Source: Candidatus Parcubacteria bacterium (GTDB lineage Bacteria > Patescibacteriota > Minisyncoccia > Phycocordibacterales > CAIJYI01). Taken from it: a stretch of DNA of 64,000 bases. Where the stretch lies: positions 122,111-186,110 of the forward strand of contig JAPLYL010000002.1 in assembly GCA_026395595.1 (NCBI GenBank), given 5' to 3'. A model generated the notes under the pieces. That model saw nothing but the letters and a program-made list of their open reading frames with translations. It was not told the origin of the DNA and did not search any database. The first letter of the stretch is position 1. The number at the start of each line of letters is the position of its first letter. Made by a program: the position numbers and the translations under genes. Of this stretch, positions 21,532 through 54,141 are shown in pieces.

Positions 21532-23223
21532 TTATTTAACCCCGTGTTTCTTGCGTATTTCAGTAAGTTCTTGTTCCTCAGCCTCAGCTTTTGCCTCTTT
21601 CCCTTCTTCTCCAAGTTTTTTAAGCTCTGATTCCGGAAGTTTTATAAGTTCTTGAGTGCGTTTCTCAAGATATTCTGCTGTGTTGAGGTTTGGATCTTCT
21701 AAAACCTCCTCCAGGAGCGCGTGCAGGATAAGTCCAAGTTTTGGTCCGGGTGTTTCATGTGTAACCTCCATTATTCTCGTACCATCAATTTTGAGCATTC
21801 CGACGGAAACAGGTGCACGCATCGCTTCTTCTATCATCGCCTCGTATTTTCGTAAACGATAGGGTTTTTCAACCGGTCTTCCCATTCCAATACGGTCACA
21901 TGCCCTTATTTTCATAAGATCCCACACATTTTCCGGTCCGACATTCGCAACAATCCTTCTTACTGCTGAAAGCGTTATCTTTTCCACATCTGAGAAGAAA
22001 AGATGATATTTTACCAGAGATGAAACCGTATCGGAAAGTTTCACGGGAAACCTTAATCGTTCCATTATCTTCTTTGAAACCCTTCCACCAACGACGTCAT
22101 GCCCGTAAAACGTCCAATTGTCCTTCTCTTTAGACCATCGGCGTGTTTCCGGCTTGGAAATATCGTGCAGCAAAGAGCCTAAACGGATATGAAGAGGCCA
22201 ATTATGCCTCGCCGCATTATCAAGAGCGCGAAGGTTATGTTCCCAGACCGTATAGATATGACTCCCGTTTTGTTCCACACCAATCCCCTTTTCCAGTTCC
22301 GGGACGATAAATCGCAATAAACCAAGCTCATGAGTCAAAACGATACCGCTCATAGTATTCTCCGACATAACTATTTTTACAAATTCATCACGAATTCTTT
22401 CACATGAAACATGTTTCAGATTGTCGGAAAGCTGTTTTATGGCATCTTCCGTCTCTTTTTCTATAGTGAAACCCAGTTGGGTAGCAAAACGAACAGCGCG
22501 CAGTAAACGAAGAGCGTCTTCATTGAAACGGTCTTCCGGTTTCCCTATTGCCCTGACGATTTTGTCCTTTATATCAGATTGTCCTTTATAAAGGTCAACA
22601 ATAATACCCTCTTTTGGGTTGTATGCGAGTGCATTTATCGTAAAATCACGGCGTTTCAGGTCGTCTTCCAGTTTTTTACTGAAAATCACCGCATTCGGAT
22701 GCCTTTTGTCGCTATATTCCGATTCCATTCGGTAAGGCGTAACCTCTATAATAGTTGTTGTTTCATGTGTAACAGGGTTTTCCTCATTTTTTAATGTTTC
22801 ACATGTAACTATTTGATTGACCGCTCGCGCGGCTCGCTGTGGCGTAGGAGTCAGTCTGGGGACTGACGGATGAAAACCTACGGTTTTCATACTTTCCCTT
22901 GTTTCACATGTAACATTTTCGTCACCACCATCTGATGTTTCATGTGTAACGGTCGGTCGGACGTGGTCTCTGACCCCGTCCGGAACATTTGTATTTACCA
23001 CAACCCCCACGGTTCCAAAGGTATTTTCATAGAAGGTTTTCTCAAAAAGCCCGATTATTTCTTCCGGTACGGCATTAGTGGTAACATCCCAATCTTTCGG
23101 TTCCCTTCCCAAAATAAGATCTCTTACACAGCCACCAACCAAATAAGCTTCAAAACCGGCGTCTTGAAGGGTTTCTGTTACACGTGTAACATATAATGGA
23201 ATATGGCTCTGTAAGTCTTTCAT
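21532..23223 (-). CDS. cca: CCA-adding tRNA nucleotidyltransferase (class II, with HD domain) carrying an ~85-aa in-frame insertion
   Basis: LVGGCVRD, RRDFTINA, ERxxxE and a C-terminal HD motif (LLHDISK); the insertion falls between the FGTVGVV and IEVTPYRMESEY blocks. Confidence 0.8.
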   Translation of the reverse strand: MKDLQSHIPLYVTRVTETLQDAGFEAYLVGGCVRDLILGREPKDWDVTTNAVPEEIIGLFEKTFYENTFGTVGVVVNTNVPDGVRDHVRPTVTHETSDGGDENVTCETRESMKTVGFHPSVPRLTPTPQRAARAVNQIVTCETLKNEENPVTHETTTIIEVTPYRMESEYSDKRHPNAVIFSKKLEDDLKRRDFTINALAYNPKEGIIVDLYKGQSDIKDKIVRAIGKPEDRFNEDALRLLRAVRFATQLGFTIEKETEDAIKQLSDNLKHVSCERIRDEFVKIVMSENTMSGIVLTHELGLLRFIVPELEKGIGVEQNGSHIYTVWEHNLRALDNAARHNWPLHIRLGSLLHDISKPETRRWSKEKDNWTFYGHDVVGGRVSKKIMERLRFPVKLSDTVSSLVKYHLFFSDVEKITLSAVRRIVANVGPENVWDLMKIRACDRIGMGRPVEKPYRLRKYEAMIEEAMRAPVSVGMLKIDGTRIMEVTHETPGPKLGLILHALLEEVLEDPNLNTAEYLEKRTQELIKLPESELKKLGEEGKEAKAEAEEQELTEIRKKHGVK

Positions 23224-23283: not shown

Positions 23284-23355
23284 GCGCCCGTAGTGAAACG
23301 GATATCACAACGGTCTTCGAAACCGTTAGTCCAGGTTCGAGTCCTGGTGGGCGCA
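23284..23355 (+). tRNA. tRNA-Arg (anticodon TCG)
   Basis: I folded the cloverleaf by hand: acceptor GCGCCCG/TGGGCGC, anticodon loop CTTCGAA, T-loop TTCGAGT, discriminator A; CCA is not encoded. Confidence 0.85.
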
Positions 23356-23418
23356 CAAGAAATATATAAGTATTTTTTCTATTGAAAAAACTTTTATTTT
23401 TCGTATAATAGTGACATT

Positions 23419-23489
23419 GCGGGTATGGTTTAGTGGTAGAACATTTGCTTGCCAAGCAAAAGACGCGGTTTCGATTACCGCTACCCGCA
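23419..23489 (+). tRNA. tRNA-Gly (anticodon GCC)
   Basis: Acceptor GCGGGTA/TACCCGC, anticodon loop TTGCCAA, T-loop TTCGATT. Confidence 0.85.
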
Positions 23490-23496
23490 CAATGAG

Positions 23497-31344: not shown

Positions 31345-31352
31345 TTATAATG

Positions 31353-31423
31353 TCGGGCTGCCGGGAATCGAACCCGGTCTATATCCACCCCATGGACACG
31401 TACTACCGGTATACTACAGCCCG
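31353..31423 (-). tRNA. tRNA-Pro (anticodon GGG)
   Basis: Minus-strand fold: acceptor CGGGCTG/CAGCCCG, anticodon loop ATGGGGT, T-loop TTCGATT; its D-arm is identical to that of tRNA-Pro(TGG). Confidence 0.8.
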
Positions 31424-31618
31424 CCTTCACTAAGACTACGTCGGGCGATGCCCGCTTTCCTTTACTCTATCAGAAATTTCGTCTTTTGGAAATAAGTGTT
31501 TGTTTGCAAAAAAGCAGTTTCTTTGTTATATTATCCAAGTACTCAGCTTTGTCAGTGGGCTTTGCTCGCCGTAGCTTCAGCGGAGTCTGTCTTCGCCAAA
31601 AGCTATGGCAAAGTAAAA

Positions 31619-31689
31619 GCGGGTATAATTTAATGGTAGAATGGCACTCTTCCAAAGTGCATACCGGAGTTCGATTCTCCGTACCCGCA
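31619..31689 (+). tRNA. tRNA-Gly (anticodon TCC)
   Basis: Acceptor GCGGGTA/TACCCGC, anticodon loop CTTCCAA, T-loop TTCGATT. Confidence 0.85.
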
Positions 31690-31706
31690 CCAGAAAAACC
31701 GACCAC

Positions 31707-32936
31707 ATGGCCGGTTTTTTGCTTGTTGCTTCTATTTTTGTTATTCTTATCTATATGAAAGAAAATTTTGAAGAGGCATTGCGAAGTTTAAGCGAGGATA
31801 TAAAACAGGAAGACGAGAAGAAGGCAAATAAAGATTTGCAAAAATACAGCAGTAAAAATATTCTTATGAAAGAGACGGCTGGTGTCGTGTATGAAATTCA
31901 AAAAGAGAAACAGCACGTTATAGATGAACTCCACCAAAAAATTCAAGATGTAGAAAACGATAAAGAAGTTAGCGGTTTTACGGAAGGAGAACCGCGTTTC
32001 GTTGAATGGAATAAACGGGCTCATCGCGCTATGGTCGTTCTTCCTTCCGGCAAACGTACGCCGGCTACTGTCGGGGAACTTGTAACTGACGGGGAGTGGA
32101 ATCTTTCCTATACTCTTTCCGGTGAAATACCGAGGGATATCAGAAAACGTTTTATCACGGCGGAGGCACGGAGGAAAATTCACAATTTGGCAGATGAACA
32201 GATTATTGAAACAGAAAAAGAAAGAGGGCTAAATCCCGTATTCAACCACTTGAAGGAGAACGAAAAAAGCGGAGCAAAAGAAATGAAAGACGGATTTATT
32301 GCCGAAAAGCTTGTTGCGACGTATTTTGAAAAGAACATTCTTGATCATGATCTCCCTATGAAATTTGAAAGAGCCGATGTTCTTGAGGATTTGCAGGAAA
32401 GGATAGATTTCAAGATTTATCGTCCAGATCGTATTCGGGGCGTAGGGACAACAACAGGAGTGCAGTTGACGATAGATACTACGTATCAGACACAAAATCG
32501 CAAAAAAGGAGATATAGAGAAAGTAAAACTTGAAAATAAATCGGACGTTGATGATATTGTGCTTGTTACTTTACCTTTAGACCATCTTCGTCAAAAATTT
32601 TCCACATGGAAAAACAATGAAATGCGACCAGGCGGACCCATGAAAACATGGGGAGATAAGGAGAAGAAAGAAATATTCAGAGGTGTTTTGTATGGAATTT
32701 TTCCGGAAAAGGAGATATCCGGTATGTGGGAAAGCGTAATCAGTGATGCGTCGGAAACGGATTTGAAAATAAACGAAGTGATTGAGCAAATTTCAAAAAT
32801 TAGCACTGAAAAAAAATCTCAAAAACAAACGAATAAAACAGAGATTACTACAAAAAAAACTTCCGATGAGGGCGGACAGGAAAATCTGGATAAATTTGCG
32901 AATAAATACGGTAGGTGGTTCGGTAAGAAAAAGTAG
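31707..32936 (+). CDS. hypothetical protein with N-terminal TM anchor
   Basis: The ORF track starts at 31641, inside the tRNA; a plausible start is MAGFLLVASIFVILIY (31707), or MKEN (31756). Confidence 0.45.
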   Translation: MAGFLLVASIFVILIYMKENFEEALRSLSEDIKQEDEKKANKDLQKYSSKNILMKETAGVVYEIQKEKQHVIDELHQKIQDVENDKEVSGFTEGEPRFVEWNKRAHRAMVVLPSGKRTPATVGELVTDGEWNLSYTLSGEIPRDIRKRFITAEARRKIHNLADEQIIETEKERGLNPVFNHLKENEKSGAKEMKDGFIAEKLVATYFEKNILDHDLPMKFERADVLEDLQERIDFKIYRPDRIRGVGTTTGVQLTIDTTYQTQNRKKGDIEKVKLENKSDVDDIVLVTLPLDHLRQKFSTWKNNEMRPGGPMKTWGDKEKKEIFRGVLYGIFPEKEISGMWESVISDASETDLKINEVIEQISKISTEKKSQKQTNKTEITTKKTSDEGGQENLDKFANKYGRWFGKKK

Positions 32937-33012
32937 TATTTTTTGTTAGGATTTGGTATGGTTTATTTACCAAAGGTTAGTAAGTATATGCTTGCCCTGC
33001 GTAGCTTTTAGC

Positions 33013-33094
33013 GAAGCATGGGCCCGGGTGGCGAAATTGGTAGACGCGTACGCTTCAGGTGCGTATGTCGCAAGACATGGAGGTTCAAGTCCTC
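33013..33094 (+). tRNA. tRNA-Leu (anticodon CAG), class II
   Basis: Acceptor GCCCGGG/CCCGGGC, anticodon loop TTCAGGT, long variable arm TGTCGCAAGACAT, T-loop TTCAAGT. Confidence 0.85.
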
Positions 33095-33101
33095 TCCCGG
33101 G

Positions 33102-33429
33102 CACAAAAAATCATCCGCTTCTGCGGATTTTTTGTGCCCGGGAAGGGAGTGCCCTGCGGCACTCGCGGGAGGATTTGAAGATGTTGAACTTGTCGCAACG
33201 AGTCGAGGCCGGTGAGGAATGGGCTGGGCCCCGTTCCGCAAGACCTTTTGAGAATTTTTGTGAGCGGTGAGCGCGACCTAAATTTTTACGACCATGGGGG
33301 AGATAAAAATGGAAGTACTCTTGCGGTGAAACAAAAAGTCCAAAAGGTGTACTGCGCCAGTAGGGCGAAGTGAGACGTGAAACATGTACCGTTCCTGTAA
33401 GGAAAAAGTCCTCTCCCGGGCACAAAAAA
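33102..33429. repeat. GC-rich ~300-bp non-coding insert bounded by 23-nt direct repeats of the tRNA-Leu 3' end
   Basis: AGTCCTCTCCCGGGCACAAAAAA at 33079-33101 and again at 33407-33429, each followed by a terminator hairpin; the insert begins with GCCCGGG, the tRNA 5' acceptor sequence. Confidence 0.5.
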
Positions 33430-33511
33430 GACCAACAAAAGGTCTTTTTTATTTGTATTTATTGATGATCTGTCAAGGTAACCCTCTCTCTGTTTTTCGG
33501 TTATACTATTT

Positions 33512-34648
33512 ATGATGAACAACAAAGCTCAACCGGTGAAACTCCGTACGTGGATAGAGATAGATACGCGTGCAGCCACTCAAAACTATAAGGTTTTTCG
33601 GGGTATTATTAAACCGAAGACGAAACTGATGGCCGTCGTGAAATCCAATGCGTATGGAAACGAACTCATCGGTTTTTCCAAGATGCAGGACAAATTTGGG
33701 GCTGATGCATTTGGTGTGGACTCTATTACTGAAGGACTCGCCTTACGCGAGGCGGGAGTGGTGAAACCGATACTGGTTTTGGGGTATACGATCCACGAAA
33801 ACGTCCGCATTGCCTCAGAAAAGAACATCAGTATTACGCTTTCCAGTTTTGAAGCGCTTTCTTTGTTGATAAAAGAAAAAATACCGGTTACTGTCCATAT
33901 AAAAATAGACAGCGGTATGCACCGGCAAGGATTTTTTCCGAAAGACGCAAAAAAACTCGCCGATATTCTTTCGAAGAATAAGCACATAAAAGTAGAGGGA
34001 ATGTATACTCATTTTGCCAATGCAAAAAATCCGAGCTTTTCTGGAGATACCGACCAACAAGCGATGGAATTCAAACAAACTGCGGATATTTTTGAAAAAG
34101 CGGGATTTCATTTTATAAAACACGCGAGCGCGACATCAGGCGCTTTGCTTTTTCCTGAATATCACTTTGATATGGTACGTATCGGCATTGGTTTGTCCGG
34201 TTTGTGGCCGGCAAAGGAAGTGGAACGGGTGCTGGAGAAAAAAATAAAACTGACGCCGATACTTTCTTGGAAGACCGTCGTTGCCGAAACAAAAACCATT
34301 CCGAAAGGGGAGAGAATCGGATATAACTTCACGGAAACTTTTTCCCAAGATGCGAAGATTGTTATTTGCCCGATTGGTTATTGGCACGGATTTCCGAGGT
34401 CTCTTTCTTCTATTGGTCATGTACTCGTTGCTGGAAAGCGTGCAAGGGTACTCGGACGGGTTTCTATGGATATGATCACTGTTGATGTGAGCGATATAAA
34501 AAACATAAAAATAGGAGATGAGGTTATTCTTATCGGAAAAACAAGCAAAGAAGAAATTACCGCCGATGAATTCGCCGCTTATTCCGATACCTCAAGTTAC
34601 GAGATTGTAACAAGGATCAATCCAAAGATACAAAGAGTGTTTTTATAA
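33512..34648 (+). CDS. alr: alanine racemase
   Basis: PLP-lysine motif AVVKSNAYGNE and fold-type III domain order; 378 aa. Confidence 0.9.
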   Translation: MMNNKAQPVKLRTWIEIDTRAATQNYKVFRGIIKPKTKLMAVVKSNAYGNELIGFSKMQDKFGADAFGVDSITEGLALREAGVVKPILVLGYTIHENVRIASEKNISITLSSFEALSLLIKEKIPVTVHIKIDSGMHRQGFFPKDAKKLADILSKNKHIKVEGMYTHFANAKNPSFSGDTDQQAMEFKQTADIFEKAGFHFIKHASATSGALLFPEYHFDMVRIGIGLSGLWPAKEVERVLEKKIKLTPILSWKTVVAETKTIPKGERIGYNFTETFSQDAKIVICPIGYWHGFPRSLSSIGHVLVAGKRARVLGRVSMDMITVDVSDIKNIKIGDEVILIGKTSKEEITADEFAAYSDTSSYEIVTRINPKIQRVFL

Positions 34649-46416: not shown

Positions 46417-47670
46417 ATGCAAATTTCACTTATAGAATTTTCAGTAGAAAACTTCAGCGTTTTTAAAGAAAAGGCAACACTTTCTATGGTGGCGCGGAAA
46501 AATGATAACCATACATTTGAATCAAATGGTGAAAACCTACTGAAAACCTCTTTTATTTATGGTCCGAATGCCTCAGGAAAAACCTCTCTTTTGGACGCTT
46601 TTGTGAATTTGAAAACGGGAATTTTGTTTTCTTCCAATATGAAAGAAAATTCAGAGTTGCCCTATAATCCGTTTTTGGCATCGGAAAACACCAAAACAAA
46701 GCCAGTTTGGTTTGAGTTGGTTTTTTCTGCACTTGGGGATCATGCCGGAATATATAGATATTCCTTCTCTTTCTTGCCGGATCATATTGTTACGGAGAAT
46801 TTTACTAAAATATCTATAACTGGGGTAGAGGAACAACTTATTTCGCGAACGGGGCAAGATATAATACTTTCGGGTTGGGGAGATGACGTACAAATTTTGC
46901 GTGACAAAGCGCGTAAGGAAACACTTTTCTTGTCTGTTGCGGCACAATTCAATAATAAACTTGCCCTAAGTTTTGTGGAGGCGTTAAAAAATGTGAATAT
47001 CATTTCAGGCGTTACTTATGCAACCTATCAGCAATTCACTATAAAAAAATTCAAAGATGATCCGCTATACAAAGAAAGTATTTTAAAATACTTAAAAACT
47101 GCCGACTTTTGTATTTCCGGCGGTCGAACAAAAGAAATTGACATTCCATCTTTAGAAAACGTTAAAGATGAGCCAGATATGTTTTCTGCGGTTAAACGAA
47201 TGATAAAACACACCGCTTTGTTTTTCGAGCATCCTGTGTTTGGTAAAAACAACGAACCGGTCGGTGTGTTCGAGCTGTCTCTTGAAGAAGAGTCAACCGG
47301 TACACAAAATTTTCTTTCTATGCTTGGACCAATCATTAACACTCTTGAAACAGGTAAAGTTCTTGCCATAGACGAATTTGATAACAGCTTGCATCCGCTT
47401 TTGACAAAATTTATTGTCGATCTTTTTGAATCATCTGAGACAAATAAACACAACGCTCAACTTGTCGTAACGACACACGACACAAGTTTACTTTCGTATC
47501 GCGATGATTTTATCAAAGATCAATTTTGGTTTACCGATAAAGATGAATTTGGTTCAGCTCGGCTGTTTTCTCTTGCTGAATTTGATATAAGAAATGATAC
47601 TGAATTTGCGAAAAAATATCTGGAAGGTCGATTTGGCGCTCTGCCGTTTATCGGTTCCGTAAAAAAGTAA
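46417..47670 (+). CDS. AAA_21/ABC-type ATPase (OLD / AbiLi / AriA-like)
   Basis: Walker A GPNASGKTS near the N-terminus, Walker B/D-loop LAIDEFDNSLHP, and H-loop VVTTHD. Confidence 0.75.
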   Translation: MQISLIEFSVENFSVFKEKATLSMVARKNDNHTFESNGENLLKTSFIYGPNASGKTSLLDAFVNLKTGILFSSNMKENSELPYNPFLASENTKTKPVWFELVFSALGDHAGIYRYSFSFLPDHIVTENFTKISITGVEEQLISRTGQDIILSGWGDDVQILRDKARKETLFLSVAAQFNNKLALSFVEALKNVNIISGVTYATYQQFTIKKFKDDPLYKESILKYLKTADFCISGGRTKEIDIPSLENVKDEPDMFSAVKRMIKHTALFFEHPVFGKNNEPVGVFELSLEEESTGTQNFLSMLGPIINTLETGKVLAIDEFDNSLHPLLTKFIVDLFESSETNKHNAQLVVTTHDTSLLSYRDDFIKDQFWFTDKDEFGSARLFSLAEFDIRNDTEFAKKYLEGRFGALPFIGSVKK

Positions 47671-47674
47671 AGGA

Positions 47675-48298
47675 ATGTCTGTTTTTCAACGCAAACGCGA
47701 TACCCGTAAGATTCGCAAAGTAATTCGGATATACACGGAAGGTACAAAAACGGAGCCGAATTATTTCGGCTCGATAAAAGATGAATTGCGAATATCTGAA
47801 ATAGATATTCAAATTCAAGGGGTGCGAGGATTTAACAATCATACTTTACCGCTCGTTGGGTCGGTGATTGAAAGAAAAAAAGAGGAAGAAAAAAATAACG
47901 ATTTTGAAACGGAATGGTGGGTTGTTTTTGATAAAGATGATTTTCCTGATTTTAATAGTGCTATTGATTTGGCACAAAAACACGGCATTAACGTTGTCTA
48001 TTCCAACGAGTGTTTTGAATTATGGTTTATTCTCCATTTTGAGTTTTTGCAGACTTCTCTCGGAAGGAATAATTTTGAACCAAAGTTATCAAAGTTGCTC
48101 GGCAGAAAATATGAAAAGAAGAGTTCGGATATTTACGATCTGATAAAAGATAAAGAATCCAACGCGATTCGTTACGCAAAAAAGCTGGAAAAAATGCATG
48201 ATGATGAAAAAGTGAGTTCTCCGGAACAAAGAGTTCCATCAACTTTAGTCTATAAACTGGTCGAAAGATTACGATCACTAAAAACCGAAAGAGAATAG
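47675..48298 (+). CDS. RloB-like (Toprim-like) protein
   Basis: N-terminal IYTEGTKTEPNYF matches the RloB signature (CEGxTExxYF); starts 5 nt after the ATPase stop. Confidence 0.7.
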   Translation: MSVFQRKRDTRKIRKVIRIYTEGTKTEPNYFGSIKDELRISEIDIQIQGVRGFNNHTLPLVGSVIERKKEEEKNNDFETEWWVVFDKDDFPDFNSAIDLAQKHGINVVYSNECFELWFILHFEFLQTSLGRNNFEPKLSKLLGRKYEKKSSDIYDLIKDKESNAIRYAKKLEKMHDDEKVSSPEQRVPSTLVYKLVERLRSLKTERE

Positions 48299-48302
48299 TT
48301 TT

Positions 48303-48887
48303 ATGACCGCCAAAACCACAAATCGCCATATTAAAATTGTTAATAAAGCAAAGCAAAAAATCAAAGAACTTCTTGAAGATCCGAATTGTGTTTGGAGAAC
48401 CATGAGAATACTTAAGGGGCACACAACGGGATTATCCGAACAAGAAATCCTTGATATTTTGTCGAATCTTGGAGCAACGAGTTCTGTCGGAGAAAAAGGT
48501 GAAAAAATATGGAAGTTACATTCCCGTGGCGATAATGATACCCACAAACAAAAAAAGCAATCTCGAAATAAAATTATTTCTCACTCTGACTATTGGAAAA
48601 ATATTTGGTCCCAATGTTCCAAAATTAAATTCAGATACGTTATAATTTCCATGTTGTTAGTTTCTGCATATCTGGGTTACATAAAATTTTCTCCCGAGGT
48701 AAGCACTCCTCTTGGTAAATTTGCATTTAACACAAGCGAATCAAATAAAGTTCTTAGTTCGTCGGTTTTATCTGCTGATATAAACCCAAAAAAATGGACG
48801 TTTCTGTTTTTGGGTTGGTCTCAAGTATTGATTACCGTAAACCCTTATTCAATGTTCAAAAGAAATGGGAAGGATACAAAGGATTAA
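48303..48887 (+). CDS. hypothetical protein, predicted wHTH N-terminus plus one TM
   Basis: Starts 5 nt after the RloB stop; TM segment FRYVIISMLLVSAYLGYIKF. Confidence 0.45.
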   Translation: MTAKTTNRHIKIVNKAKQKIKELLEDPNCVWRTMRILKGHTTGLSEQEILDILSNLGATSSVGEKGEKIWKLHSRGDNDTHKQKKQSRNKIISHSDYWKNIWSQCSKIKFRYVIISMLLVSAYLGYIKFSPEVSTPLGKFAFNTSESNKVLSSSVLSADINPKKWTFLFLGWSQVLITVNPYSMFKRNGKDTKD

Positions 48888-49147
48888 ATACAACAAAAGA
48901 ACAAGCTATACTCTTTAATTCTGGAGATACTGGGTCAGGAAAAATTTGGGCAGATTTGGAAAGTACGCATCTGTATGACGGAAAAAATGTTAAAATCACG
49001 TGCGTTTTTGGAGGAGAATGGGCTCAAAGAATTGAAGTCCTTGGAGAAAAAGAACATGGAACCCGCGAATTAACTTTTTCGGGAATCATTAATGGTGATT
49101 TGTCACAAGGAAATCTCCCCGTGTTAGAAGATTGTAAGTTGTATTAA
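48794..49147 (+). CDS. hypothetical protein (overlaps the previous ORF by 94 nt in the +2 frame)
   Basis: Its ATG follows an A7 run directly; the translation is plausible and beta-rich; the start is uncertain. Confidence 0.35.
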   Translation: MDVSVFGLVSSIDYRKPLFNVQKKWEGYKGLNTTKEQAILFNSGDTGSGKIWADLESTHLYDGKNVKITCVFGGEWAQRIEVLGEKEHGTRELTFSGIINGDLSQGNLPVLEDCKLY

Positions 49148-49156
49148 TCACACAAT

Positions 49157-49384
49157 GTGAGTAAAAGCGGTGAGCATGTTGTCGCGATTCAGTCTAAAAT
49201 CAAAAAAGAAAAAAATTACTGTATGTTGTTCTCGAAATTTTTTGAGGCCAAAAGCTTGAAAAAAATGCTGATCGAGTCGTTCCAGCAGATCCACTCAAAG
49301 ATTATTTGGAATACGTGCGATAGTAGGAAAGAGAGAGTTGACACAAACAAACCCGCCAAACCTTACGGTTTGGGCGGGGGATAA
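49157..49384 (+). CDS. hypothetical small protein
   Basis: 75-aa ORF, the last in this same-strand cluster. Confidence 0.3.
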   Translation: MSKSGEHVVAIQSKIKKEKNYCMLFSKFFEAKSLKKMLIESFQQIHSKIIWNTCDSRKERVDTNKPAKPYGLGGG

Positions 49385-49491
49385 ATACAATCCTAATATC
49401 CCATAGGCGAGGGTAACTTGCATTACGTATACAATACGTATCCGTAGCACCTATTAGTCAAGCTCTTCCGCTGTGGACAAGTGCATAAAAA

Positions 49492-49522
49492 CAACTCCGC
49501 AAAGTTTGCGGAGTTATTTTTT
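49492..49522. terminator. bidirectional terminator
   Basis: AACTCCGCAAA-GTT-TGCGGAGTT followed by TTTTTT. Confidence 0.7.
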
Positions 49523-49529
49523 ATCTTTC

Positions 49530-50873
49530 TTATTCTTCCGTTTTTTCCTCTTTTTTCTTTTTGGTTTTCTTCGGTTCTTCTTTTGCCGTTTCGGCGGAGG
49601 CGGATTCCACTTCTCCTTTCAGTACTTCTTCTACCACCTCTTTTTCCGTGATGACTTCTTCGGTTGGGGTTTCATTTATTGATTCTTCAAATTCTTTCAC
49701 TTCCTTCTCTTCTTCCAGTTCTTTTTCTTCCTCCTCTACTGCTTCTTCCGTTTCTTTGGTGGAATGAATGTCTATTTTCCAGCCGGTCAATTTGGCGGCC
49801 AGTCTCGCGTTTTGACCTCCTTTTCCGATAGCGAGGGAAAGCTGGTCTTCGGCGACGATGACTGAGGCACGCTTTTCTTCGGGGCGGAGTTCTACGGAGA
49901 GGATTTTGGCGGGAGCGAGAGAATCGGAGATGAATTTCTTTGCATCTTCCGACCATTCTATAATATCTATCTTTTCTCCTCCGAGTTCGCTCATGACGGT
50001 GGTTACTCGGACGCCTCTTTGTCCGACACAGGAACCGATCGGGTCAATGTGCTCATCGTTTGAATACACGGCGATTTTTGCGCGTGAACCCGGTTCGCGG
50101 GCGATATTTTTGATCTCAACGACCCCACTCATGACTTCTGGCGCTTCCATCTTGAAAAATTCTTCAATGAGTTTTGGGTGGGTGCGGGAAAGGCGGAGGT
50201 TTATTCCTCTCGGTGTGTCTTCAACGCGATAAAGAAAGGCTTTGATGCGCTCTCCTTGGCGATATTTTTCACGGGAGATCTGTTCTTCGTAAGGAAGAAT
50301 AGCGGTCGTTTTTCCGAGGTCTACGAAGATATTCCCCTTTTCAATTCTTTGAACCATTCCGTTGACGACTTCTCCTTCTTTTTTGCCGAATTCGTCCATC
50401 GTCGTGCTTTTCTCCGCTTCACGGATTTTCTGAATAATGACCTGTTTTGCGGTTTGTGCGGCAATGCGTCCGAAATCTTCTTTGGTTTCAAGAGGGAAGA
50501 CGAGTTCTTCTTCAACGGCGGCATCGCGTTTGATTTTCTTGGCATCTTCAAGAAGAATATGGTGTTCGCTGTTGAAGCGAGTACGAAGGTCGTTTTCGTC
50601 TTTTTCTTCCTCAATCGGTTCACCATTTTCATCAAGCGGAGCCGGCATTTTAACGATGGATTCGTCAACGATGACCTTTACCTGCGAGAAATCGGTCGCT
50701 CCTGTGTCCAAATCAAATTTGGCGCGGACGATTTGCCCCTTTTTACCGTATTCTTTTTTGTAGGCGGCAGCGAGAGACATTTCTATCGCTTCCAAGATCT
50801 TTTCTTTGGAAATGCCTTTTTCTTCCTCCATTTGCTCAAGTGCCGAGCGGAGCGTTTTAAGATCAAATAACAT
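49530..50873 (-). CDS. nusA: transcription termination/antitermination factor NusA
   Basis: N-terminal domain, then S1 and two KH domains, and an acidic/K-rich C-terminal tail. Confidence 0.9.
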   Translation of the reverse strand: MLFDLKTLRSALEQMEEEKGISKEKILEAIEMSLAAAYKKEYGKKGQIVRAKFDLDTGATDFSQVKVIVDESIVKMPAPLDENGEPIEEEKDENDLRTRFNSEHHILLEDAKKIKRDAAVEEELVFPLETKEDFGRIAAQTAKQVIIQKIREAEKSTTMDEFGKKEGEVVNGMVQRIEKGNIFVDLGKTTAILPYEEQISREKYRQGERIKAFLYRVEDTPRGINLRLSRTHPKLIEEFFKMEAPEVMSGVVEIKNIAREPGSRAKIAVYSNDEHIDPIGSCVGQRGVRVTTVMSELGGEKIDIIEWSEDAKKFISDSLAPAKILSVELRPEEKRASVIVAEDQLSLAIGKGGQNARLAAKLTGWKIDIHSTKETEEAVEEEEKELEEEKEVKEFEESINETPTEEVITEKEVVEEVLKGEVESASAETAKEEPKKTKKKKEEKTEE

Positions 50874-51019
50874 ATATTTGTTGTTACACTTATAATTTTG
50901 ACAATTTTGTTAAAAAAATGAGCCCGTACGGGACGGACTCAAGGTATGAATATATAGTACTCTGTGATGCCATTTTGTCAAGGAACATGCTTGTCAACAG
51001 TTATCCACTGTTTATCATA

Positions 51020-51048
51020 TTGACGAATACATGACAGGAAGTATAATA
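51020..51048 (+). promoter_or_regulatory. near-consensus sigma70 promoter TTGACG-17-TATAAT
   Basis: TTGACG at 51020-51025 and TATAAT at 51043-51048; the DnaA-box-like TTATCCACT at 51001-51009 lies just upstream; AGGAGA SD and ATG at 51055. Confidence 0.5.
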
Positions 51049-51054
51049 GGAGAC

Positions 51055-51795
51055 ATGCACCCCATACAACAAAAGATACTCTCTCTGGCGAAGAGTCAAA
51101 ATATCGCCGGGCTTACACTGCGGAAGATTGGCGAACTTATCAGTGAGCCGGACGCTCCGCAAAAGATCAAACACCATATTGATAAACTGAAAGAAAAAGG
51201 ATTATTGCTTTCTGGAGAAGGTGGCAAGCATCTGAAACCCGCTTCTGGTGGAATAGACAAAATGTCCAGTCTTGTATCTCTGCCGATACTCGGCTCTGCG
51301 AACTGCGGGGAAGCAACGATGTATGCCGACGGGGCGATTGAAGGCTATCTGAAAGTATCGCTTCGCATTTTGGGAGAAAAATTCAGAAATAAATTGGATG
51401 ACCTCTTTGTTTTGCGCGCTTCCGGAAATTCCATGAATCGCGCGAATGTTCACGGTAAAACCATTGACGATGGCGATTATGTTATCGCGGAAAGAATTCA
51501 TGAAGCGCCGAAAAGCGGGGAATATATCGTCTCCATTATTGAAGGTTTGGCGAATATCAAAAAATTCCTGATTGATACCAAAAACGAGCATATTATTCTC
51601 GCTCCCGAATCAAGTTTGGATTTTTCACCGATTTATATACATAAAGAAGACTATTCCGGCTATTTTGTTGGTGGCCGAGTAGTAGATGTCATCAAAAAAC
51701 CGGATGAATTCATGGATTCCTCTGCTGGCGATATCCTCAAATACGGCAAACCGATACGAGAGGTAGATTACTCAAGCAAGAAAAAGAAAAAATAA
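51055..51795 (+). CDS. LexA-like repressor (wHTH plus S24 peptidase domain)
   Basis: N-terminal HTH; C-terminal LRASGNSM (catalytic Ser) and ...KK (Lys) S24 motifs; the ORF track's start at 51031 would contain the -10 element. Confidence 0.7.
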   Translation: MHPIQQKILSLAKSQNIAGLTLRKIGELISEPDAPQKIKHHIDKLKEKGLLLSGEGGKHLKPASGGIDKMSSLVSLPILGSANCGEATMYADGAIEGYLKVSLRILGEKFRNKLDDLFVLRASGNSMNRANVHGKTIDDGDYVIAERIHEAPKSGEYIVSIIEGLANIKKFLIDTKNEHIILAPESSLDFSPIYIHKEDYSGYFVGGRVVDVIKKPDEFMDSSAGDILKYGKPIREVDYSSKKKKK

Positions 51796-52895
51796 TGGAA
51801 ACGAACAAGAAAGTTTCTTTAAATAGTAATTTTACGGAATTTTTACTGTATACTACTCCAAACCATAAGGTAAAGGTTGAAATTTTCTTGCGTGATGAAA
51901 ATATCTGGCTGACGCAAAAATTAATTGCACGGCTTTTTGATTGTTCTTCTGATAATGTTTCTTTTCACTTGAAAAACATTTTTGAAAGCGGTGAATTGCT
52001 GGAAAATTCAGTTACCGAGGAATTCTCGGTAACTGCCGGTGATGGTAAAAAGTATAAGACAAAACATTATAATTTAGATGCGATTATTTCGGTAGGGTAT
52101 CGAGTAAATTCCGCCAATGCGACTCAGTTTCGTATCTGGGCGACCGAACGCTTGAAAGAATATATTATCAAGGGGTTTACTATGGACGATGAACGCTTGA
52201 AAAACCCAAATACGATCTTTGGTAAGGATTATTTTGAAGAACAACTGGCAAGAATTAGAAATATCCGATCTAGCGAAAGACGAATGTATCAGAAAGTTAC
52301 CGATATCTATGCTGAATGTAGCGCTGATTATTCTCCAAATAGCGATATAACGAAAGAATTTTTTGCAACAATTCAAAACAAACTTCATTTTGCAATAACC
52401 GGTAAAACTGCCGCGGAAATTATTTATGAAAGAGTAAAAAATGAAAAACCGAATATCGGACTTACTTCGTGGAAAAACTCTCCAAAAGGAAGAATCCGAG
52501 AAACCGATGTTATCATTGCCAAAAATTACTTAAACGAAAAAGAACTTGACCACCTGAATAGAATTGTCACTATGTACCTTGATTTTGCGGAAATGCAAGC
52601 GAAACGAGGCATTCTTATGAGAATGAAAGATTGGACATCAAAACTGGATGCATTTCTGAAGTTTAACGAGCAGGAAATTTTATCCAACGCAGGAAAAATC
52701 AGCCATGAAGTTGCTGAAGCTTTAGCTCTTGAAGAATACGAAAAATACAGGATAGAACAGGATAAAAATTATATTTCTGATTTTGACAGAGAAGTGAAGA
52801 AAATTTTAGATGTAAAGAAAAAACATGCCAAATTTTCGGAAAGTGATAATTTTTTTGATAAAAATGTTGTAAAAGATAAAAATGAAGGAAATTAA
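51795..52895 (+). CDS. RhuM-family (virulence protein RhuM-like) protein
   Basis: HYNLDAIISVGYRVNSANATQFRIWATERLKEY is the RhuM core signature; its start overlaps the LexA-like stop (ATAATGG). Confidence 0.7.
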   Translation: METNKKVSLNSNFTEFLLYTTPNHKVKVEIFLRDENIWLTQKLIARLFDCSSDNVSFHLKNIFESGELLENSVTEEFSVTAGDGKKYKTKHYNLDAIISVGYRVNSANATQFRIWATERLKEYIIKGFTMDDERLKNPNTIFGKDYFEEQLARIRNIRSSERRMYQKVTDIYAECSADYSPNSDITKEFFATIQNKLHFAITGKTAAEIIYERVKNEKPNIGLTSWKNSPKGRIRETDVIIAKNYLNEKELDHLNRIVTMYLDFAEMQAKRGILMRMKDWTSKLDAFLKFNEQEILSNAGKISHEVAEALALEEYEKYRIEQDKNYISDFDREVKKILDVKKKHAKFSESDNFFDKNVVKDKNEGN

Positions 52896-53012
52896 CAAAA
52901 TTAAACAACTTAAAAATGTTATTAAAGATGCAATAGACGAGCGTTTTAATACAGTGATAAGGTAGAAGTTAAACTGGAAGAGATCATAAATAAAGCTGTA
53001 CTTGAATATGAA

Positions 53013-53315
53013 ATGCTTCTTACTGAAGATGTAAAGCAGGTACTTAAAAATAATTATAAAATAGACTTTTATAACCGTGGATATCTTGGTGATAAAATAA
53101 AAATTTACGAAGCCACCGTTGGGAAAAATGAGTTCAGTAAATTATTGTGGAAAATTAATATGATACGTAATGATTTGAGTCACACACGTATTGATAAACT
53201 TTTTTATAAAAAGCAGGATCTATCTCTAAGAGAAACAAAAGAGGTTTTACTTACTGATTTATTTACTCAAATGATAAACCACGGTGAACCATCCTTAAAA
53301 GTGAATTCAAAATAA
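53013..53315 (+). CDS. hypothetical protein
   Basis: 100-aa ORF. Confidence 0.35.
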   Translation: MLLTEDVKQVLKNNYKIDFYNRGYLGDKIKIYEATVGKNEFSKLLWKINMIRNDLSHTRIDKLFYKKQDLSLRETKEVLLTDLFTQMINHGEPSLKVNSK

Positions 53316-53319
53316 TTTT

Positions 53320-54141
53320 ATGCACAACAATTTAAAAAACCTTGCTATTTTTGAAGGGAATCATATTCGCCGGCTGTGGGACGGGGAAAAAGAACTGTGG
53401 TATTTTTCAATTATCGATGTGATTCAAGTTTTAACAGAAAGCCCGAGACCAAGAAAATACTGGAATGCTTTAAAAACAAAGTTAAAAAACGAAGGAAGTC
53501 AGTTGTCCCAGAAAGTGGGACAACTGAAAATGGAATCTCTTGACGGAAAAATGTACCTTACTGATGTGGCGGATACAGAAACGCTTTTACGACTTATCCA
53601 ATCAACGCCTTCTCCAAAAGCTGAGCCATTTAAGCTTTGGTTGGCAAAGGTTGGATATGAAAGAATGAGGGAAATGGGCGATCCGGAAATAGCGCTTAAC
53701 CGAAGCCGTGTCTATTGGAGAGAGCAGGGGAGAAGTGAAAAATGGATTGAACAAAGAATGACAGGACAAGAAACGAGAAATAAACTCACTGATTACTGGA
53801 GCGAGCACAAAGTAAAGAAAGGCGAAGAATTTGCCATATTGACGAACATCATACATCAAGAATGGAGCGACATATCAGTAAAAGAACACAAAGGACTGAA
53901 AGGTTTAAAAACACAAAATCTTCGTGATCATATGAGTGAAGAAGAATTGATTTTTACCGCGCTGGCTGAACTTTCCACAAGAAGAATTGCAGAAACAGAT
54001 AAGGCCGAAGGATTGGAAGAAAACAAAATTCCGGCAAAAAAAGGCGGAAAAATCGCAAAAGACGCGCGCCTCACTTTAGAAGAAAAAACAGGGAGCAGCG
54101 TCATCACTGGTAAAAACTTTTTGTTGCCATCTAAAAAATAA
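53320..54141 (+). CDS. Bro-N/DinD-like domain protein (antirepressor-like)
   Basis: NHIRRLWDGEKELWYFSIIDVIQVLTESPRPRKYW...AEPFKLWLAKVGYE is Bro-N-like; 273 aa. Confidence 0.55.
   Translation: MHNNLKNLAIFEGNHIRRLWDGEKELWYFSIIDVIQVLTESPRPRKYWNALKTKLKNEGSQLSQKVGQLKMESLDGKMYLTDVADTETLLRLIQSTPSPKAEPFKLWLAKVGYERMREMGDPEIALNRSRVYWREQGRSEKWIEQRMTGQETRNKLTDYWSEHKVKKGEEFAILTNIIHQEWSDISVKEHKGLKGLKTQNLRDHMSEEELIFTALAELSTRRIAETDKAEGLEENKIPAKKGGKIAKDARLTLEEKTGSSVITGKNFLLPSKK

Follow-up and report, generated by a model that had tools for sequence, protein, structure and literature searches.

A conserved structured RNA family of Parcubacteria that carries a foldback of the neighbouring tRNA's 3' end, represented behind a tRNA-Leu gene

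The DNA directly behind a tRNA-Leu(CAG) gene in the stretch analysed here (the window, 64,000 nucleotides of contig JAPLYL010000002.1 from a Candidatus Parcubacteria bacterium) belongs to a conserved structured RNA family of Parcubacteria/Paceibacterota (CPR), each member of which is a foldback of the neighbouring tRNA's own 3' end. For the window copy (33128-33429), family membership, a conserved fold, the strand, arms matched to the cognate tRNA, a modular interior and absence from Rfam were all observed. Set against Rfam 15 and the searchable literature, the family is apparently uncatalogued. We consider the chances about even that the locus is a plus-strand gene of approximately 290 nt for a structured non-coding RNA, i.e. 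a member of a tRNA-trailer family that is scaffolded on tRNA sequence, co-transcribed with the tRNA and equipped with exchangeable interior modules.

The tRNA-Leu(CAG) gene was located at 33022-33103/33104 on the plus strand, as are all features described below, by ARAGORN, by Rfam (RF00005, 52.1 bits) and from the sequence; it does not encode CCA. Its 3' 20 nt (33084-33103, hereafter S) comprise T loop, T-stem 3' strand, acceptor 3' strand and discriminator, and are copied in both orientations by the RNA downstream. A repeat search recovered AAGTCCTCTCCCGGGCACAAAAAA (24 nt) exactly twice in the 64-kb window, and shuffled sequences gave zero matches even with up to three mismatches allowed. 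The repeat spans from the tRNA T loop (A57/A58) via T-stem 3' strand, acceptor 3' strand and discriminator into an A run, copy 1 (33087-33110) being the tRNA end itself. Copy 2 (33406-33429; repeat search, fold and covariation) is the 3' strand of the closing helices of the RNA and is divided into P1b (33406-33413), P1 (33414-33417), an acceptor-like extension (33418-33423) and then the A run. An earlier sequence-only reading had announced a 23-nt direct repeat at this place. The repeat is real (24 nt) and its second copy was well placed, but the first copy, put at 33079-33101, was 9 nt off, and the spacing given as 305 bp measured 319 nt (33087 to 33406).

A third copy of 23 nt is inverted (33126-33148); its complement is found in the tRNA 3' end as well as in the second repeat. 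This inverted copy, which includes GCCCGGG, was absent from the earlier reading. GCCCGGG had itself been noticed and assigned to the beginning of the segment; it is present at 33136-42, after the first hairpin and not at the very start. The high GC content reported for the region was confirmed (0.50-0.58 over 32950-33324 against approximately 0.33-0.42 in the flanks). Between the two direct copies, which are separated by 296 nt, no conserved ORF was found. The earlier opinion that the segment holds no credible ORF stands: the 104-aa ORF of the minus strand has neither a Pfam match nor a counterpart in the closest relative.

Each repeat copy is followed by its own terminator-like hairpin, as previously claimed (33113-33128 plus T run, and 33424-33450). 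Inverted-repeat and terminator analysis delimited hairpin A (ATCCGC-TTCT-GCGGAT and T run) at 33113-33133, where it forms the apex of an extended palindrome of 23 bp (33090-33112/33126-33148). Hairpin B (AAAAAAGACC-AACAAAA-GGTCTTTTTT, 33424-33450) is the terminator-like end of the whole tRNA-Leu plus RNA unit. Both 33113-33133 and 33424-33450 combine a GC-rich hairpin with a U run, as intrinsic terminators do. In relative L001, a 32-nt terminator identical to window hairpin A is located after the RNA and one resembling hairpin B lies between tRNA and RNA. The two terminators are components of the locus and leave the 226-nt interior unexplained.

Repeats, fold and covariation together defined the parts of the RNA proper. 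The left arm (33128-33143) consists of a U run followed by GUGCCCGGGA and is the reverse complement of the acceptor 3' strand and trailer; its partner is either 33414-33429 (P1 plus extension) or, alternatively, the tRNA 3' end. Next comes hairpin P2 (33145-33166; covariation and covariance model), with nine pairs, one of them mismatched in the window, and a CUGC loop at 33154-33157. It is flanked by a conserved A (33144) and by GG (33167-8), a position occupied by CGU in most relatives. The hairpin GAGTGCC-CTGC-GGCACTC pointed out in the sequence-only reading does exist (33147-33164) and is P2, the best-supported conserved helix of the family. The right arm GAGGAUUUGAA (33169-33179; fold, covariation and arm comparison) reads as T-stem 3' strand and T loop in reverse complement, and its first part (33169-33176) pairs with 33406-33413 to form helix P1b.

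The variable interior (33180-33405) was dissected by pairwise alignments and folds. Its scaffold in the window is of 'type c' (33180-33212 and 33364-33405), as in L003 and L054. Nested in it is a 'Y' module (approximately 33213-33363) common to the window and L026, and within Y an 'X' module (approximately 33268-33336) common to the window, L066, L070 and L050. The 3' end of the interior carries a small hairpin, UUCC-UGUAA-GGAA (33392-33404), then AAAG. Folding of the window RNA gave a minimum free energy (MFE) of -121 kcal/mol (z = -5.4 against shuffles), with P1, P2 and P1b all in the MFE structure. When the whole precursor was folded, the MFE structure paired the 3' half of the tRNA with the arms.

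A search with a pattern for the 5' core recovered 12 CPR species genomes and 23 metagenome contigs (about 35 genomes and contigs beyond the window), in which 7-8 of the 8 P2 hairpin pairs were formed, against at most 5 in chance matches. The members each follow a tRNA gene immediately, oriented as it is, and share one plan: reverse complement of the acceptor 3' strand, A, hairpin P2, CGU, reverse complement of T-stem 3' strand and T loop, then the variable interior and finally a copy of the tRNA 3' end. Thus the last 20 nt of the tRNA make up the 5' region in reverse complement, split at the acceptor/T-stem junction by a conserved hairpin (A, P2, CGU). The P1/P1b helix repeats the sequence of the tRNA acceptor/T-stem stack, P2 branches where the tRNA body would be, and the position of the T loop is taken by a variable, exchangeable interior domain, made of three nested modules in the window. 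A non-coding RNA reusing a tRNA-like acceptor end had been offered before as an alternative to integration. That idea was essentially right but too narrow, since the whole 3' 20 nt (T loop, T stem and acceptor) are reused as 3' strand and their reverse complement serves as 5' arms, a design repeated, each time with matched arms, behind at least seven other kinds of tRNA.

A covariance model trained without the window retrieved the window copy at 33132-33183 (56.7 bits, E = 1.8e-9) and no other credible match in the 64 kb. Among 27 sequences, 98.4% of P2 cells were paired, with changes on both sides at eight of the nine pairs; P1 and P1b were paired in 93.5% and 89% of cells, respectively. The covariation score reached 0.380, compared with 0.155 for shuffles (none of 500 attained 0.380) and at most 0.142 for slid controls. 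G-U cells (10 in P1 and 16 at a single P1b pair in the same 27 sequences) would be A-C mismatches on the opposite strand, and the fold was therefore assigned to the strand of the tRNA. The structured interiors displayed covariation of their own. The acceptor-like extension of P1 was intact in only some 11 of the 27 members (58% of cells paired), so that a complete tRNA-like acceptor end is not essential to the family. Leu members were gathered with a pattern fixing GGGAAG, the loop YUGC and GAGGAYTTGA, and the conservation of these letters is consequently in part by construction.

The same scaffold was encountered behind genes for tRNA-Pro(GGG), Cys, Lys, Leu(UAA), Gly(GCC), Arg(CCG) and His. 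The arms matched the cognate tRNA at 16-20 of 18-21 nt, compared with 8-15 nt for non-cognate tRNAs. In L004, L006, L021, L028 and L062 the 5' arms are still complementary to the upstream tRNA despite a decayed 3' copy; in L044 and L048 the left arm for the acceptor strand is absent, and no terminator separates tRNA and RNA. Loci L034 and L048 have the RNA within a run of tRNA genes on the same strand. CCA is encoded by the tRNA genes of L001 and L003. The upstream tRNA of L008 contains a group I intron, and RNA-like sequence was seen upstream of the cassette in L041, L043 and L073.

Interior types a-d are common to RNAs attached to different tRNAs; type c, for example, occurs behind both tRNA-Pro and tRNA-Leu in L003. 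No single interior is indispensable: interiors differ between close relatives (Alr 81-91% identical), and truncation or decay was seen in some copies (L082, L079). Tandem cassettes of different types behind one tRNA were recorded in L026 (Pro), L066, L061 and L031. All tRNA-Leu(NAG) loci, as retrieved via the RNA or via synteny, carried the RNA or a truncated copy. tRNA-Pro(GGG) sites were filled in L003 and L026 and empty in the window, L001, L050 and L062, the flanks of these sites not being strictly syntenic. A clean empty tRNA-Leu site upstream of alr was not found, the locus being rearranged in relatives of 82% identity or less (L003-L007, L078-L081). Many tRNAs of the same genomes have no such element.

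Rfam 15 (cmscan with all 4227 families) returned tRNA alone at gathering thresholds, i.e. no RNase P, SRP, 6S, Y RNA, riboswitch, ribozyme or intron, and raising E up to 10 added only noise of microRNA type, due to the long hairpin. The cmscan check proposed in the earlier reading thus brought no known structured RNA other than tRNA. Full-text literature searches yielded no description of such tRNA-trailer RNAs in CPR. A known class in divergent form (tmRNA, RNase P RNA, SRP RNA, Y RNA/YrlA, group I intron or RtT) or a small protein gene would suit the tRNA-like ends, the GC-richness and the structure, and an intron does accompany the tRNA of L008; we nevertheless regard this as barely credible, as cmscan found tRNA only, ARAGORN reported no tmRNA, the RNA has no G3:U70 pair, T loop or tag frame, RF00391 detects the E. 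coli copies and not the window RNA, and the ORFs are neither conserved nor matched in Pfam.

Several specific candidates were discarded as well. For tmRNA, the acceptor GCCCGGG/CCCGGGC comes without G3:U70, T loop or tag, and both ARAGORN and Rfam were negative. A tRNA or pseudo-tRNA was rejected as only acceptor-like and T-stem-like helices and one hairpin are present, with no ARAGORN or RF00005 match on 33128-33429. Motifs of tmRNA, RNase P, SRP, 5S and YrlA, as well as hammerhead and H/ACA-type three-way junctions, did not fit in a by-eye comparison. Protein coding was dismissed for lack of Pfam matches on both strands, the long minus-strand ORF not being conserved in L001; a tag peptide or small ORF in type a/b interiors fared no better, the AUG after GCCGGAGC being missing in L048. 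Complementarity to a mature CCA end, as expected of a primer-binding site, exists only where CCA is encoded (L001, L003), not in the window. The GGA/GA internal loop of type a/b interiors has the topology of a K-turn, but its bulge is 1 nt and it is absent in types c and d. A MITE or foldback transposable element would account for the inverted ends, yet the sequence is single-copy in 64 kb and copies occur only behind the matching tRNA.

The preferred reading, a structured RNA scaffolded on tRNA sequence, would work as follows. The RNA would be transcribed together with the tRNA, by read-through of the first hairpin or, in arrangements such as L044 and L048, with no terminator in between. It would fold into a mimic of the top half of tRNA and could then be released and stabilised by the enzymes of tRNA end maturation, resulting in a natural 'tRNA scaffold' that bears a variable RNA domain. 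Arms and repeat would be kept matched to the adjacent tRNA by a DNA-level process, for which templated correction in long palindromes, unequal crossing-over and recombination between repeated cores are candidates; the same process may gain, lose and swap modules between close relatives. The direct repeat is then simply the 3' strand of the closing helix of the RNA. Transcription, processing, stability and any cellular role of the RNA are inferred. Against this model counts the hairpin between the window tRNA and the RNA, which resembles a good terminator, while a separate promoter has no room. The RNA has no T loop, and its recognition by RNase P, RNase Z and the CCA-adding enzyme is therefore uncertain; a candidate gene for the last of these is present in the window at 21532-23223. 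That the arms match the upstream tRNA despite a decayed 3' copy is no less compatible with a cis-antisense or DNA-level role.

The sequence-only reading had named first a possible scar of integration into the tRNA gene. A direct repeat of the tRNA 3' part does flank the DNA, and such a repeat, with its start in the T loop, is what classically marks an att site, but a functionless relic of a past prophage or integrative element in tRNA-Leu is very improbable: the segment is conserved in many CPR species with strong compensatory changes, the architecture is shared behind eight kinds of tRNA, folding stability is high and remnants of element genes are absent. The integrase that had been looked for was not found, as no recombinase domain occurred among the 24 window ORFs scanned and no integrase in the gene calls viewed at related loci; blastn against phage and plasmid collections gave zero matches, and a pattern scan of a viral collection gave one, attributable to chance. 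Covariation and recurrence behind other tRNAs have effectively refuted the scar already. A livelier form of the idea, still rather unlikely in our view, sees small non-autonomous mobile cassettes (terminator, arms, interior and tRNA 3' copy) that a recombinase acting in trans would insert at the 3' end of the target tRNA, through a T-loop-type att site or guided as RNA or ssDNA by the 20-nt complementary arms; the direct repeat would be the duplicated target and the arrays would stem from repeated insertion. The left boundary of the repeat indeed lies in the T loop (C56-A58) in the window, L008, L034, L044 and L048, and that of L044 reaches 15 nt beyond the tRNA. Tandem units of different types, tRNA-Pro(GGG) sites filled in some relatives and empty in others, terminators swapped between the window and L001, and interiors differing between close relatives all agree with mobility, as do the many contigs ending at the locus and repeats that are perfect in some lineages and decayed in others, suggesting events of different ages. 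This is opposed by the missing integrase, by the want of phage, plasmid or better than chance viral matches, and by copies seen only behind matching tRNAs, never dispersed or free. Moreover, retargeting to at least seven tRNA types would need rewriting of the 20-nt arms, and the difference between the window and L001 is explicable without integrase, by differential loss from a two-module ancestor (as L066) via core recombination. Mobile cassettes are kept in consideration because the T-loop boundary resembles an att site and because a DNA-level process is needed for matched arms and turnover.

Alternatively, the arms might act on the tRNA transcript itself. As a cis-antisense element, they would bind the upstream tRNA along its 3' half in the precursor, lengthen the terminator hairpin by some 20 bp and so control termination, 3' processing or quality control, the downstream sense copy being an 'anti-antisense' that normally occupies them. 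Complementarity of the arms to the cognate tRNA in every member, even with a decayed or absent 3' copy, speaks for such a role, as do the pairing of the tRNA 3' half in the whole-precursor fold and a palindrome that continues without interruption through non-functional trailer nucleotides differing by locus (e.g. CATACAC/GTGTATG in L003). It leaves unexplained the conserved P2, the structured and covarying interiors and the tandem cassettes; besides, L044 and L048 are without the acceptor-strand left arm, the tRNA folds co-transcriptionally before the arms are made, and many tRNAs of the same genomes manage without the element. We hold it to be quite unlikely. A further proposal, rather unlikely in our view, treats the arms as guides, i.e. 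as a bipartite 20-nt complement to the T loop, T-stem and acceptor 3' strands of the cognate tRNA on a common scaffold (A, P2, CGU). Such a guide could be programmable and direct some enzyme yet to be named, whether a nuclease, an activity that modifies or repairs, or a decoy, to the cognate tRNA or to its precursor or 3' fragments. It could instead belong to tiny cassettes of a new class, guided by RNA or ssDNA, as the module by which they find the ends of tRNA genes and copy the target when they insert. The low rating applies to the two variants jointly.

CPR/Patescibacteria account for much of bacterial diversity, and almost nothing is known of their non-coding RNAs. A widespread, covariation-supported family is described here with a design rule: ends are rewritten to match the preceding tRNA and the interior is swapped in the manner of a cassette. 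Beside E. coli RtT, a functional puzzle since 1991, it provides a second and far richer case of foldback of a tRNA 3' end, which makes a comparative approach possible. The family raises the mechanistic question of how 20-nt arms matching an adjacent gene are maintained. It also explains spurious gene calls over such GC-rich segments in public MAG annotations and offers natural examples of RNAs that are already mounted on a tRNA-like scaffold. Were the guide proposal true, it would amount to a novel type of tRNA-directed, sequence-programmed system and would hint at a role for E. coli RtT.

Among known systems, T-loop-type att sites show a direct repeat from the T loop to or past the tRNA 3' end, with an intact tRNA at one end and part of it repeated at the other, and they accrete in tandem; cis-mobilisable elements without integrase, flanked by att sites, also exist. 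Units of the present family differ from such elements in being 100-300 bp long, gene-free and themselves a conserved structured RNA. They further add the reverse complement of the att-like sequence, have a scaffold matched to many tRNAs and no linked integrase. An acceptor/T-stem-like helix serves as a handle on a larger RNA in mascRNA at the 3' end of MALAT1 and in engineered tRNA scaffolds. The window RNA shares this handle, which plausibly lets tRNA-end enzymes define the ends; those RNAs keep a full cloverleaf or at least the T loop, whereas in the modelled window RNA a cargo domain would replace the T loop and a single hairpin the D and anticodon arms.

Another RNA located directly after a tRNA-Leu gene and before its terminator is 3'ETS-leuZ of E. 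coli, which is excised from the precursor and has its own function (PMC8166272, citing Lalaouna et al. 2015). The window RNA is likewise encoded just behind tRNA-Leu and before a terminator. Unlike the window RNA, 3'ETS-leuZ is 53 nt long and a sponge that pairs with the sRNAs RyhB and RybB, and it neither copies the tRNA 3' end nor folds back on it.

The closest parallel in plan is E. coli RtT RNA (rttR, RF00391; tyrT/tyrV operon), which like the window RNA follows a tRNA gene immediately and on its strand, and whose foldback features were verified on the K-12 sequence. RtT is released by processing from the primary tRNA transcript, as is proposed for the window RNA. RtT belongs to an enterobacterium, the window family to CPR bacteria, and the sequences are unrelated: RF00391 gave four E. 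coli matches (133-138 bits) and no window match when E was raised to 10. A small ORF (tpr) overlaps RtT, with nothing comparable at the window RNA. RtT is known for one tRNA (Tyr), while the CPR design stands with matched arms behind at least eight kinds of tRNA, and has an antisense arm that is not split by a P2 hairpin as in CPR; the modular, exchangeable interior is likewise a feature of the CPR family, unlike RtT. Yet each 178-bp RtT unit ends in a copy of the tRNA-Tyr 3' end begun in the T loop (AATCCTTCCCCCACCACCA plus trailer), analogous to the ending in the window, and the upstream antisense GGGGAAGGAT pairs with this 3' copy and closes the RNA, the same foldback plan as in the window family. 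In the MFE fold, the repeats behind tyrV/tyrT carry the antisense GGGGAAGGAU paired with the tRNA-Tyr 3' copy, the rttR helix being GGGGAAGGAU/AUCCUUCCCC. RtT units are tandemly repeated in K-12, and tandem cassettes are also found in the CPR family.

The tRNA-Leu(CAG) gene was located at 33022-33104 (+) by ARAGORN and Rfam. Its repeat, AAGTCCTCTCCCGGGCACAAAAAA, occurred exactly twice in the 64 kb (33087-33110 and 33406-33429), and a control of 100 shuffles with up to three mismatches allowed gave zero matches in all 100. The sequence-only reading was right about this repeat and about the position of its second copy, but had set the first one 9 nt too low. Also confirmed were terminator-like hairpins behind both copies, a high GC content (0.50-0.58 in this region versus about 0.35-0.42 in the flanks) and the lack of any credible ORF between the repeats. 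An inverted third copy, GATTTTTTGTGCCCGGGAAGGGA, which the sequence-only reading had overlooked, was found at 33126-33148 and is complementary to the tRNA end as well as to the second repeat. The trailer RNA (+) opens with a left arm consisting of a U run and GUGCCCGGGA (33128-33143), followed by a junction A (33144), hairpin P2 with its CUGC loop (33145-33153/33158-33166), a junction GG (33167-8) and the right arm GAGGAUUUGAA (33169-33179). The interior (33180-33405) leads to the second repeat copy, which is the 3' strand of the RNA (33406-33429), and to terminator B (33424-33450, +); alr, the alanine racemase gene, lies just downstream (33512-34648). Its product shares 100% identity with a protein of an NCBI MAG labelled as Candidatus Parcubacteria/Paceibacterota (CPR), in keeping with the window being chromosomal DNA of such a bacterium.

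The evidence speaks for a conserved structured RNA in this segment and against a scar. Four related loci reached via the neighbouring alr (L001, L003, L004 and L006) each displayed tRNA-Leu(CAG), a hairpin and a homologous segment with a common 5' part (GUGCCCGGGAAG, hairpin, CGUGAGGACUUGAA) and a common 3' part (UCCUCUCCC...), and the differences within the hairpin stem were compensatory. A search pattern built on the 5' core gave 25 matches in a species-representative collection, 12 of them in CPR species genomes (Yanofsky-, Nomura- and Taylorbacteria, Paceibacterota), together with 23 metagenome contigs. True matches had 7-8 of 8 hairpin pairs, versus at most 5 of 8 in chance matches (coding DNA, other phyla). 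The pattern itself prescribed GGGAAG, the YUGC loop and GAGGAYTTGA, which makes their invariance among Leu members partly a matter of construction; it did not constrain the P2 stem, the 3' end or those parts of the arms that lie upstream of GGG.

For the 52-nt core, a covariance model trained with the window copy left out recovered that copy with 56.7 bits (E = 1.8e-9) and no other credible match in the 64-kb window. Its second match there was the minus-strand reading of the tRNA 3' end with P2 deleted, which formally identifies the core as a reverse-complemented tRNA end into which a hairpin is inserted. In an alignment of 27 sequences covering both ends of the RNA, P2 was paired in 98.4% of cells with both-side changes at eight of nine pairs, and the closing helices P1 (GGGA/UCCC) and P1b (GAGGAYUU/AAGUCCUC) in 93.5% and 89%, respectively. 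An acceptor-like extension of P1 was paired in 58% of cells and intact in about 11 of the 27 sequences, among them the window copy. The covariation score was 0.380, versus 0.155 after shuffling (0/500 reached the observed value) and at most 0.142 in slid controls. P1 and P1b are rich in G-U pairs, which would be A-C mismatches on the opposite strand; the folded strand is therefore that of the tRNA. Conserved helices with compensatory changes were likewise seen in interior types a and b, and the window RNA folded at -121 kcal/mol (z = -5.4) into an MFE structure including P1, P2 and P1b.

Weaker core-model matches lay directly 3' of other tRNA genes. These loci were inspected, and each tRNA in 31 CPR loci was compared with its surroundings to detect repeats of its 3' end; the same architecture appeared behind tRNA-Pro(GGG), Cys, Lys, Leu(UAA), Gly(GCC), Arg(CCG) and His, and no such RNA turned up behind Gly(UCC), Arg(UCG), Val, Phe, Asn or Pro(UGG). 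The 5' part consists of the reverse complements of the acceptor 3' strand, the T-stem 3' strand and the T loop, with A, P2 and CGU inserted after the first; then follow the interior (types a-d) and a copy of the T loop, T stem and acceptor 3' strand. Cross-comparison showed 16-20 of 18-21 positions matching between arms and cognate tRNA, versus 8-15 for non-cognate tRNAs. P2, junction nucleotides and interior types are common to trailer RNAs of different tRNAs: locus L003 has a type c interior behind both tRNA-Pro and tRNA-Leu, and L010 an identical P2 behind tRNA-Cys and tRNA-Leu(UAG). In L010 (4538-6330), less than 1.8 kb holds four consecutive tRNAs (Cys, Leu-UAA, Lys, Leu-UAG), every one with a cassette of its own, an arrangement repeated in L031, so that tRNA-cluster spacer DNA consists mostly of trailer RNAs in some genomes. 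The window has one behind tRNA-Leu only. Its tRNA-Pro(GGG) (31352-31423, -) is followed by just a terminator, as opposed to counterparts with tRNA-Pro-matched arms in L003 (42-300; one cassette) and L026 (4420-4861, -; two); L001, L050 and L062 have none at tRNA-Pro(GGG).

Some cassettes displayed unusual upstream neighbours. In the Yanofskybacteria locus L008 (6811-7102, -), a group I intron (RF00028, 51 bits) precedes the cassette, and the upstream sequence ends in a T arm and acceptor 3' strand, which suggests an intron-containing tRNA missed by ARAGORN; the cassette ends in a copy of the 3' end of this putative tRNA. In three contigs (L043:2421-2601, -; L041:11600-11831, -; L073:1063-1245, +), what precedes a Leu-type cassette is no tRNA but another RNA-like, GC-rich sequence, with AAAAAGGTTCGCGC...AGCAC and a terminator at its end; it gave no Rfam or ARAGORN match, and in L041 it holds the X module also present in the window RNA.

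The interior is modular. Pairwise alignments assigned the window scaffold to type c, like those of L003 and L054. A Y module (about 33213-33363), which L026 also has in a type b scaffold, is inserted at a hairpin tip, and Y in turn encloses an X module (about 33268-33336) that recurs in L066, L070 and L050. With X in Y in a type c scaffold, the window copy is the largest and most composite of the members seen, the shortest being about 105-130 nt. Interiors differed among close relatives: type d in L001 (Alr 91% identical to that of the window), c in L003 (82%) and b in L004 (81%), with a copy truncated after the core in L082 (82%) and a decaying one in L079 (82%). In the latter, four small minus-strand ORFs that the window lacks separate the copy from alr (611-2558); one of them has a weakly scoring phage phiTE-like domain. 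Terminators were exchanged as well, an identical 32-nt hairpin A lying behind the tRNA in the window and behind the RNA in L001. Tandem units occurred in L031, L061, L066, L067 and L026; L066 has type c and then type d inside a single P1/P2 frame. One type may have been lost from such a unit when its repeated GAGGACUUGAAG or AGAUUCCUCUCCC cores recombined, and either loss would yield exactly the window/L003 or the L001 arrangement.

Other features were recorded in the same regions. Relative to L001 (1560-2289; Gly -, Pro +), the window (31352-31692; Pro -, Gly +) has its tRNA-Pro(GGG)/tRNA-Gly(UCC) pair inverted among syntenic flanking genes. A mechanical ORF of 431 aa without Pfam match (31641-32936, +; the L001 homologue was called as 456 aa) begins inside tRNA-Gly(UCC) (31619-31692), so its real start lies further downstream. 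A 563-aa protein (21532-23223, -) with a PolyA_pol head, RNA-binding and HD domains adjoins a tRNA cluster (23284-23490) and is a candidate CCA-adding enzyme, which fits tRNA genes without encoded CCA such as tRNA-Leu(CAG). A gene run at 46417-54141 (+), encoding an AAA_21 ATPase (Pfam text: 'putative AbiEii toxin'), a RhuM-family protein and a Bro-N domain protein, is typical of mobile or defence islands.

We place moderate confidence in a tRNA-scaffolded trailer RNA whose arms are matched by a DNA-level process, and infer its transcription, processing and function as follows. It would be co-transcribed with the tRNA, as proposed because L044 and L048 lack an intervening terminator and the RNA lies within tRNA operons in L034 and L048. 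Its ends would fold into a replica of the acceptor/T-stem stack, tRNA-end enzymes might release and stabilise it, and it would act as carrier of a variable domain, while templated copying or recombination of DNA would keep arms and repeat matched to the neighbouring tRNA. The arms may also be true guides, serving a tRNA-directed activity or RNA-guided homing, which we consider unlikely.

Att sites of the T-loop type have their boundary in the T loop, and the window repeat boundary falls there too; but no integrase was found among the scanned window ORFs, no phage or plasmid similarity was detected and no copy was seen apart from the matching tRNA. Non-autonomous mobile cassettes aimed at tRNA ends are unlikely, and the dead integration scar envisaged by the sequence-only reading, also at odds with a conserved structured RNA, is highly improbable. 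Control in cis, the RNA acting as an antisense controller of tRNA maturation or termination, would suit the finding that complementarity between arms and tRNA is conserved better than the 3' copy within the RNA itself: the 5' arms are complementary to the upstream tRNA in all lineages, unlike the 3' repeat, which is perfect in some and decayed in others. We consider it slightly less likely than mobile cassettes. Membership in a known class of RNA, or a protein-coding gene, is hardly tenable: the Rfam 15 scan that had been advised as a check matched only tRNA, even at E up to 10, ARAGORN found no tmRNA at the locus, and no ORF there is credible. Minus-strand hypothetical proteins placed over tRNA-Leu trailer RNAs in public annotations (L001:3692-3898, L002:3460-3714, L077:1149-1577) are very probably spurious ORFs due to the GC-rich RNA gene.

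No description of this family was found in Rfam 15 or by full-text literature searches, which is not proof of its being undescribed. One known kind that is comparable is 3'ETS-leuZ, a functional tRNA trailer (PMC8166272). The closest known system is RtT, the E. coli rttR RNA behind tRNA-Tyr (RF00391). In E. coli K-12, the 178-bp units of tyrT/tyrV-rttR each end in AATCCTTCCCCCACCACCA, a copy of the tRNA-Tyr 3' end beginning in the T loop, plus a trailer, and each also contains GGGGAAGGAT, which pairs with this copy in the MFE fold. With the Rfam RtT model, E. coli gave four copies and the window gave none; given the shared foldback plan, the window RNA is alike in architecture yet falls outside RF00391. 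The sequence-only reading had offered, as its alternative, an ncRNA reusing a tRNA-like end; this was correct, yet with several tRNA types and matched arms the window RNA belongs to an RtT-like set of tRNA-trailer RNAs broader and stranger than it had supposed.
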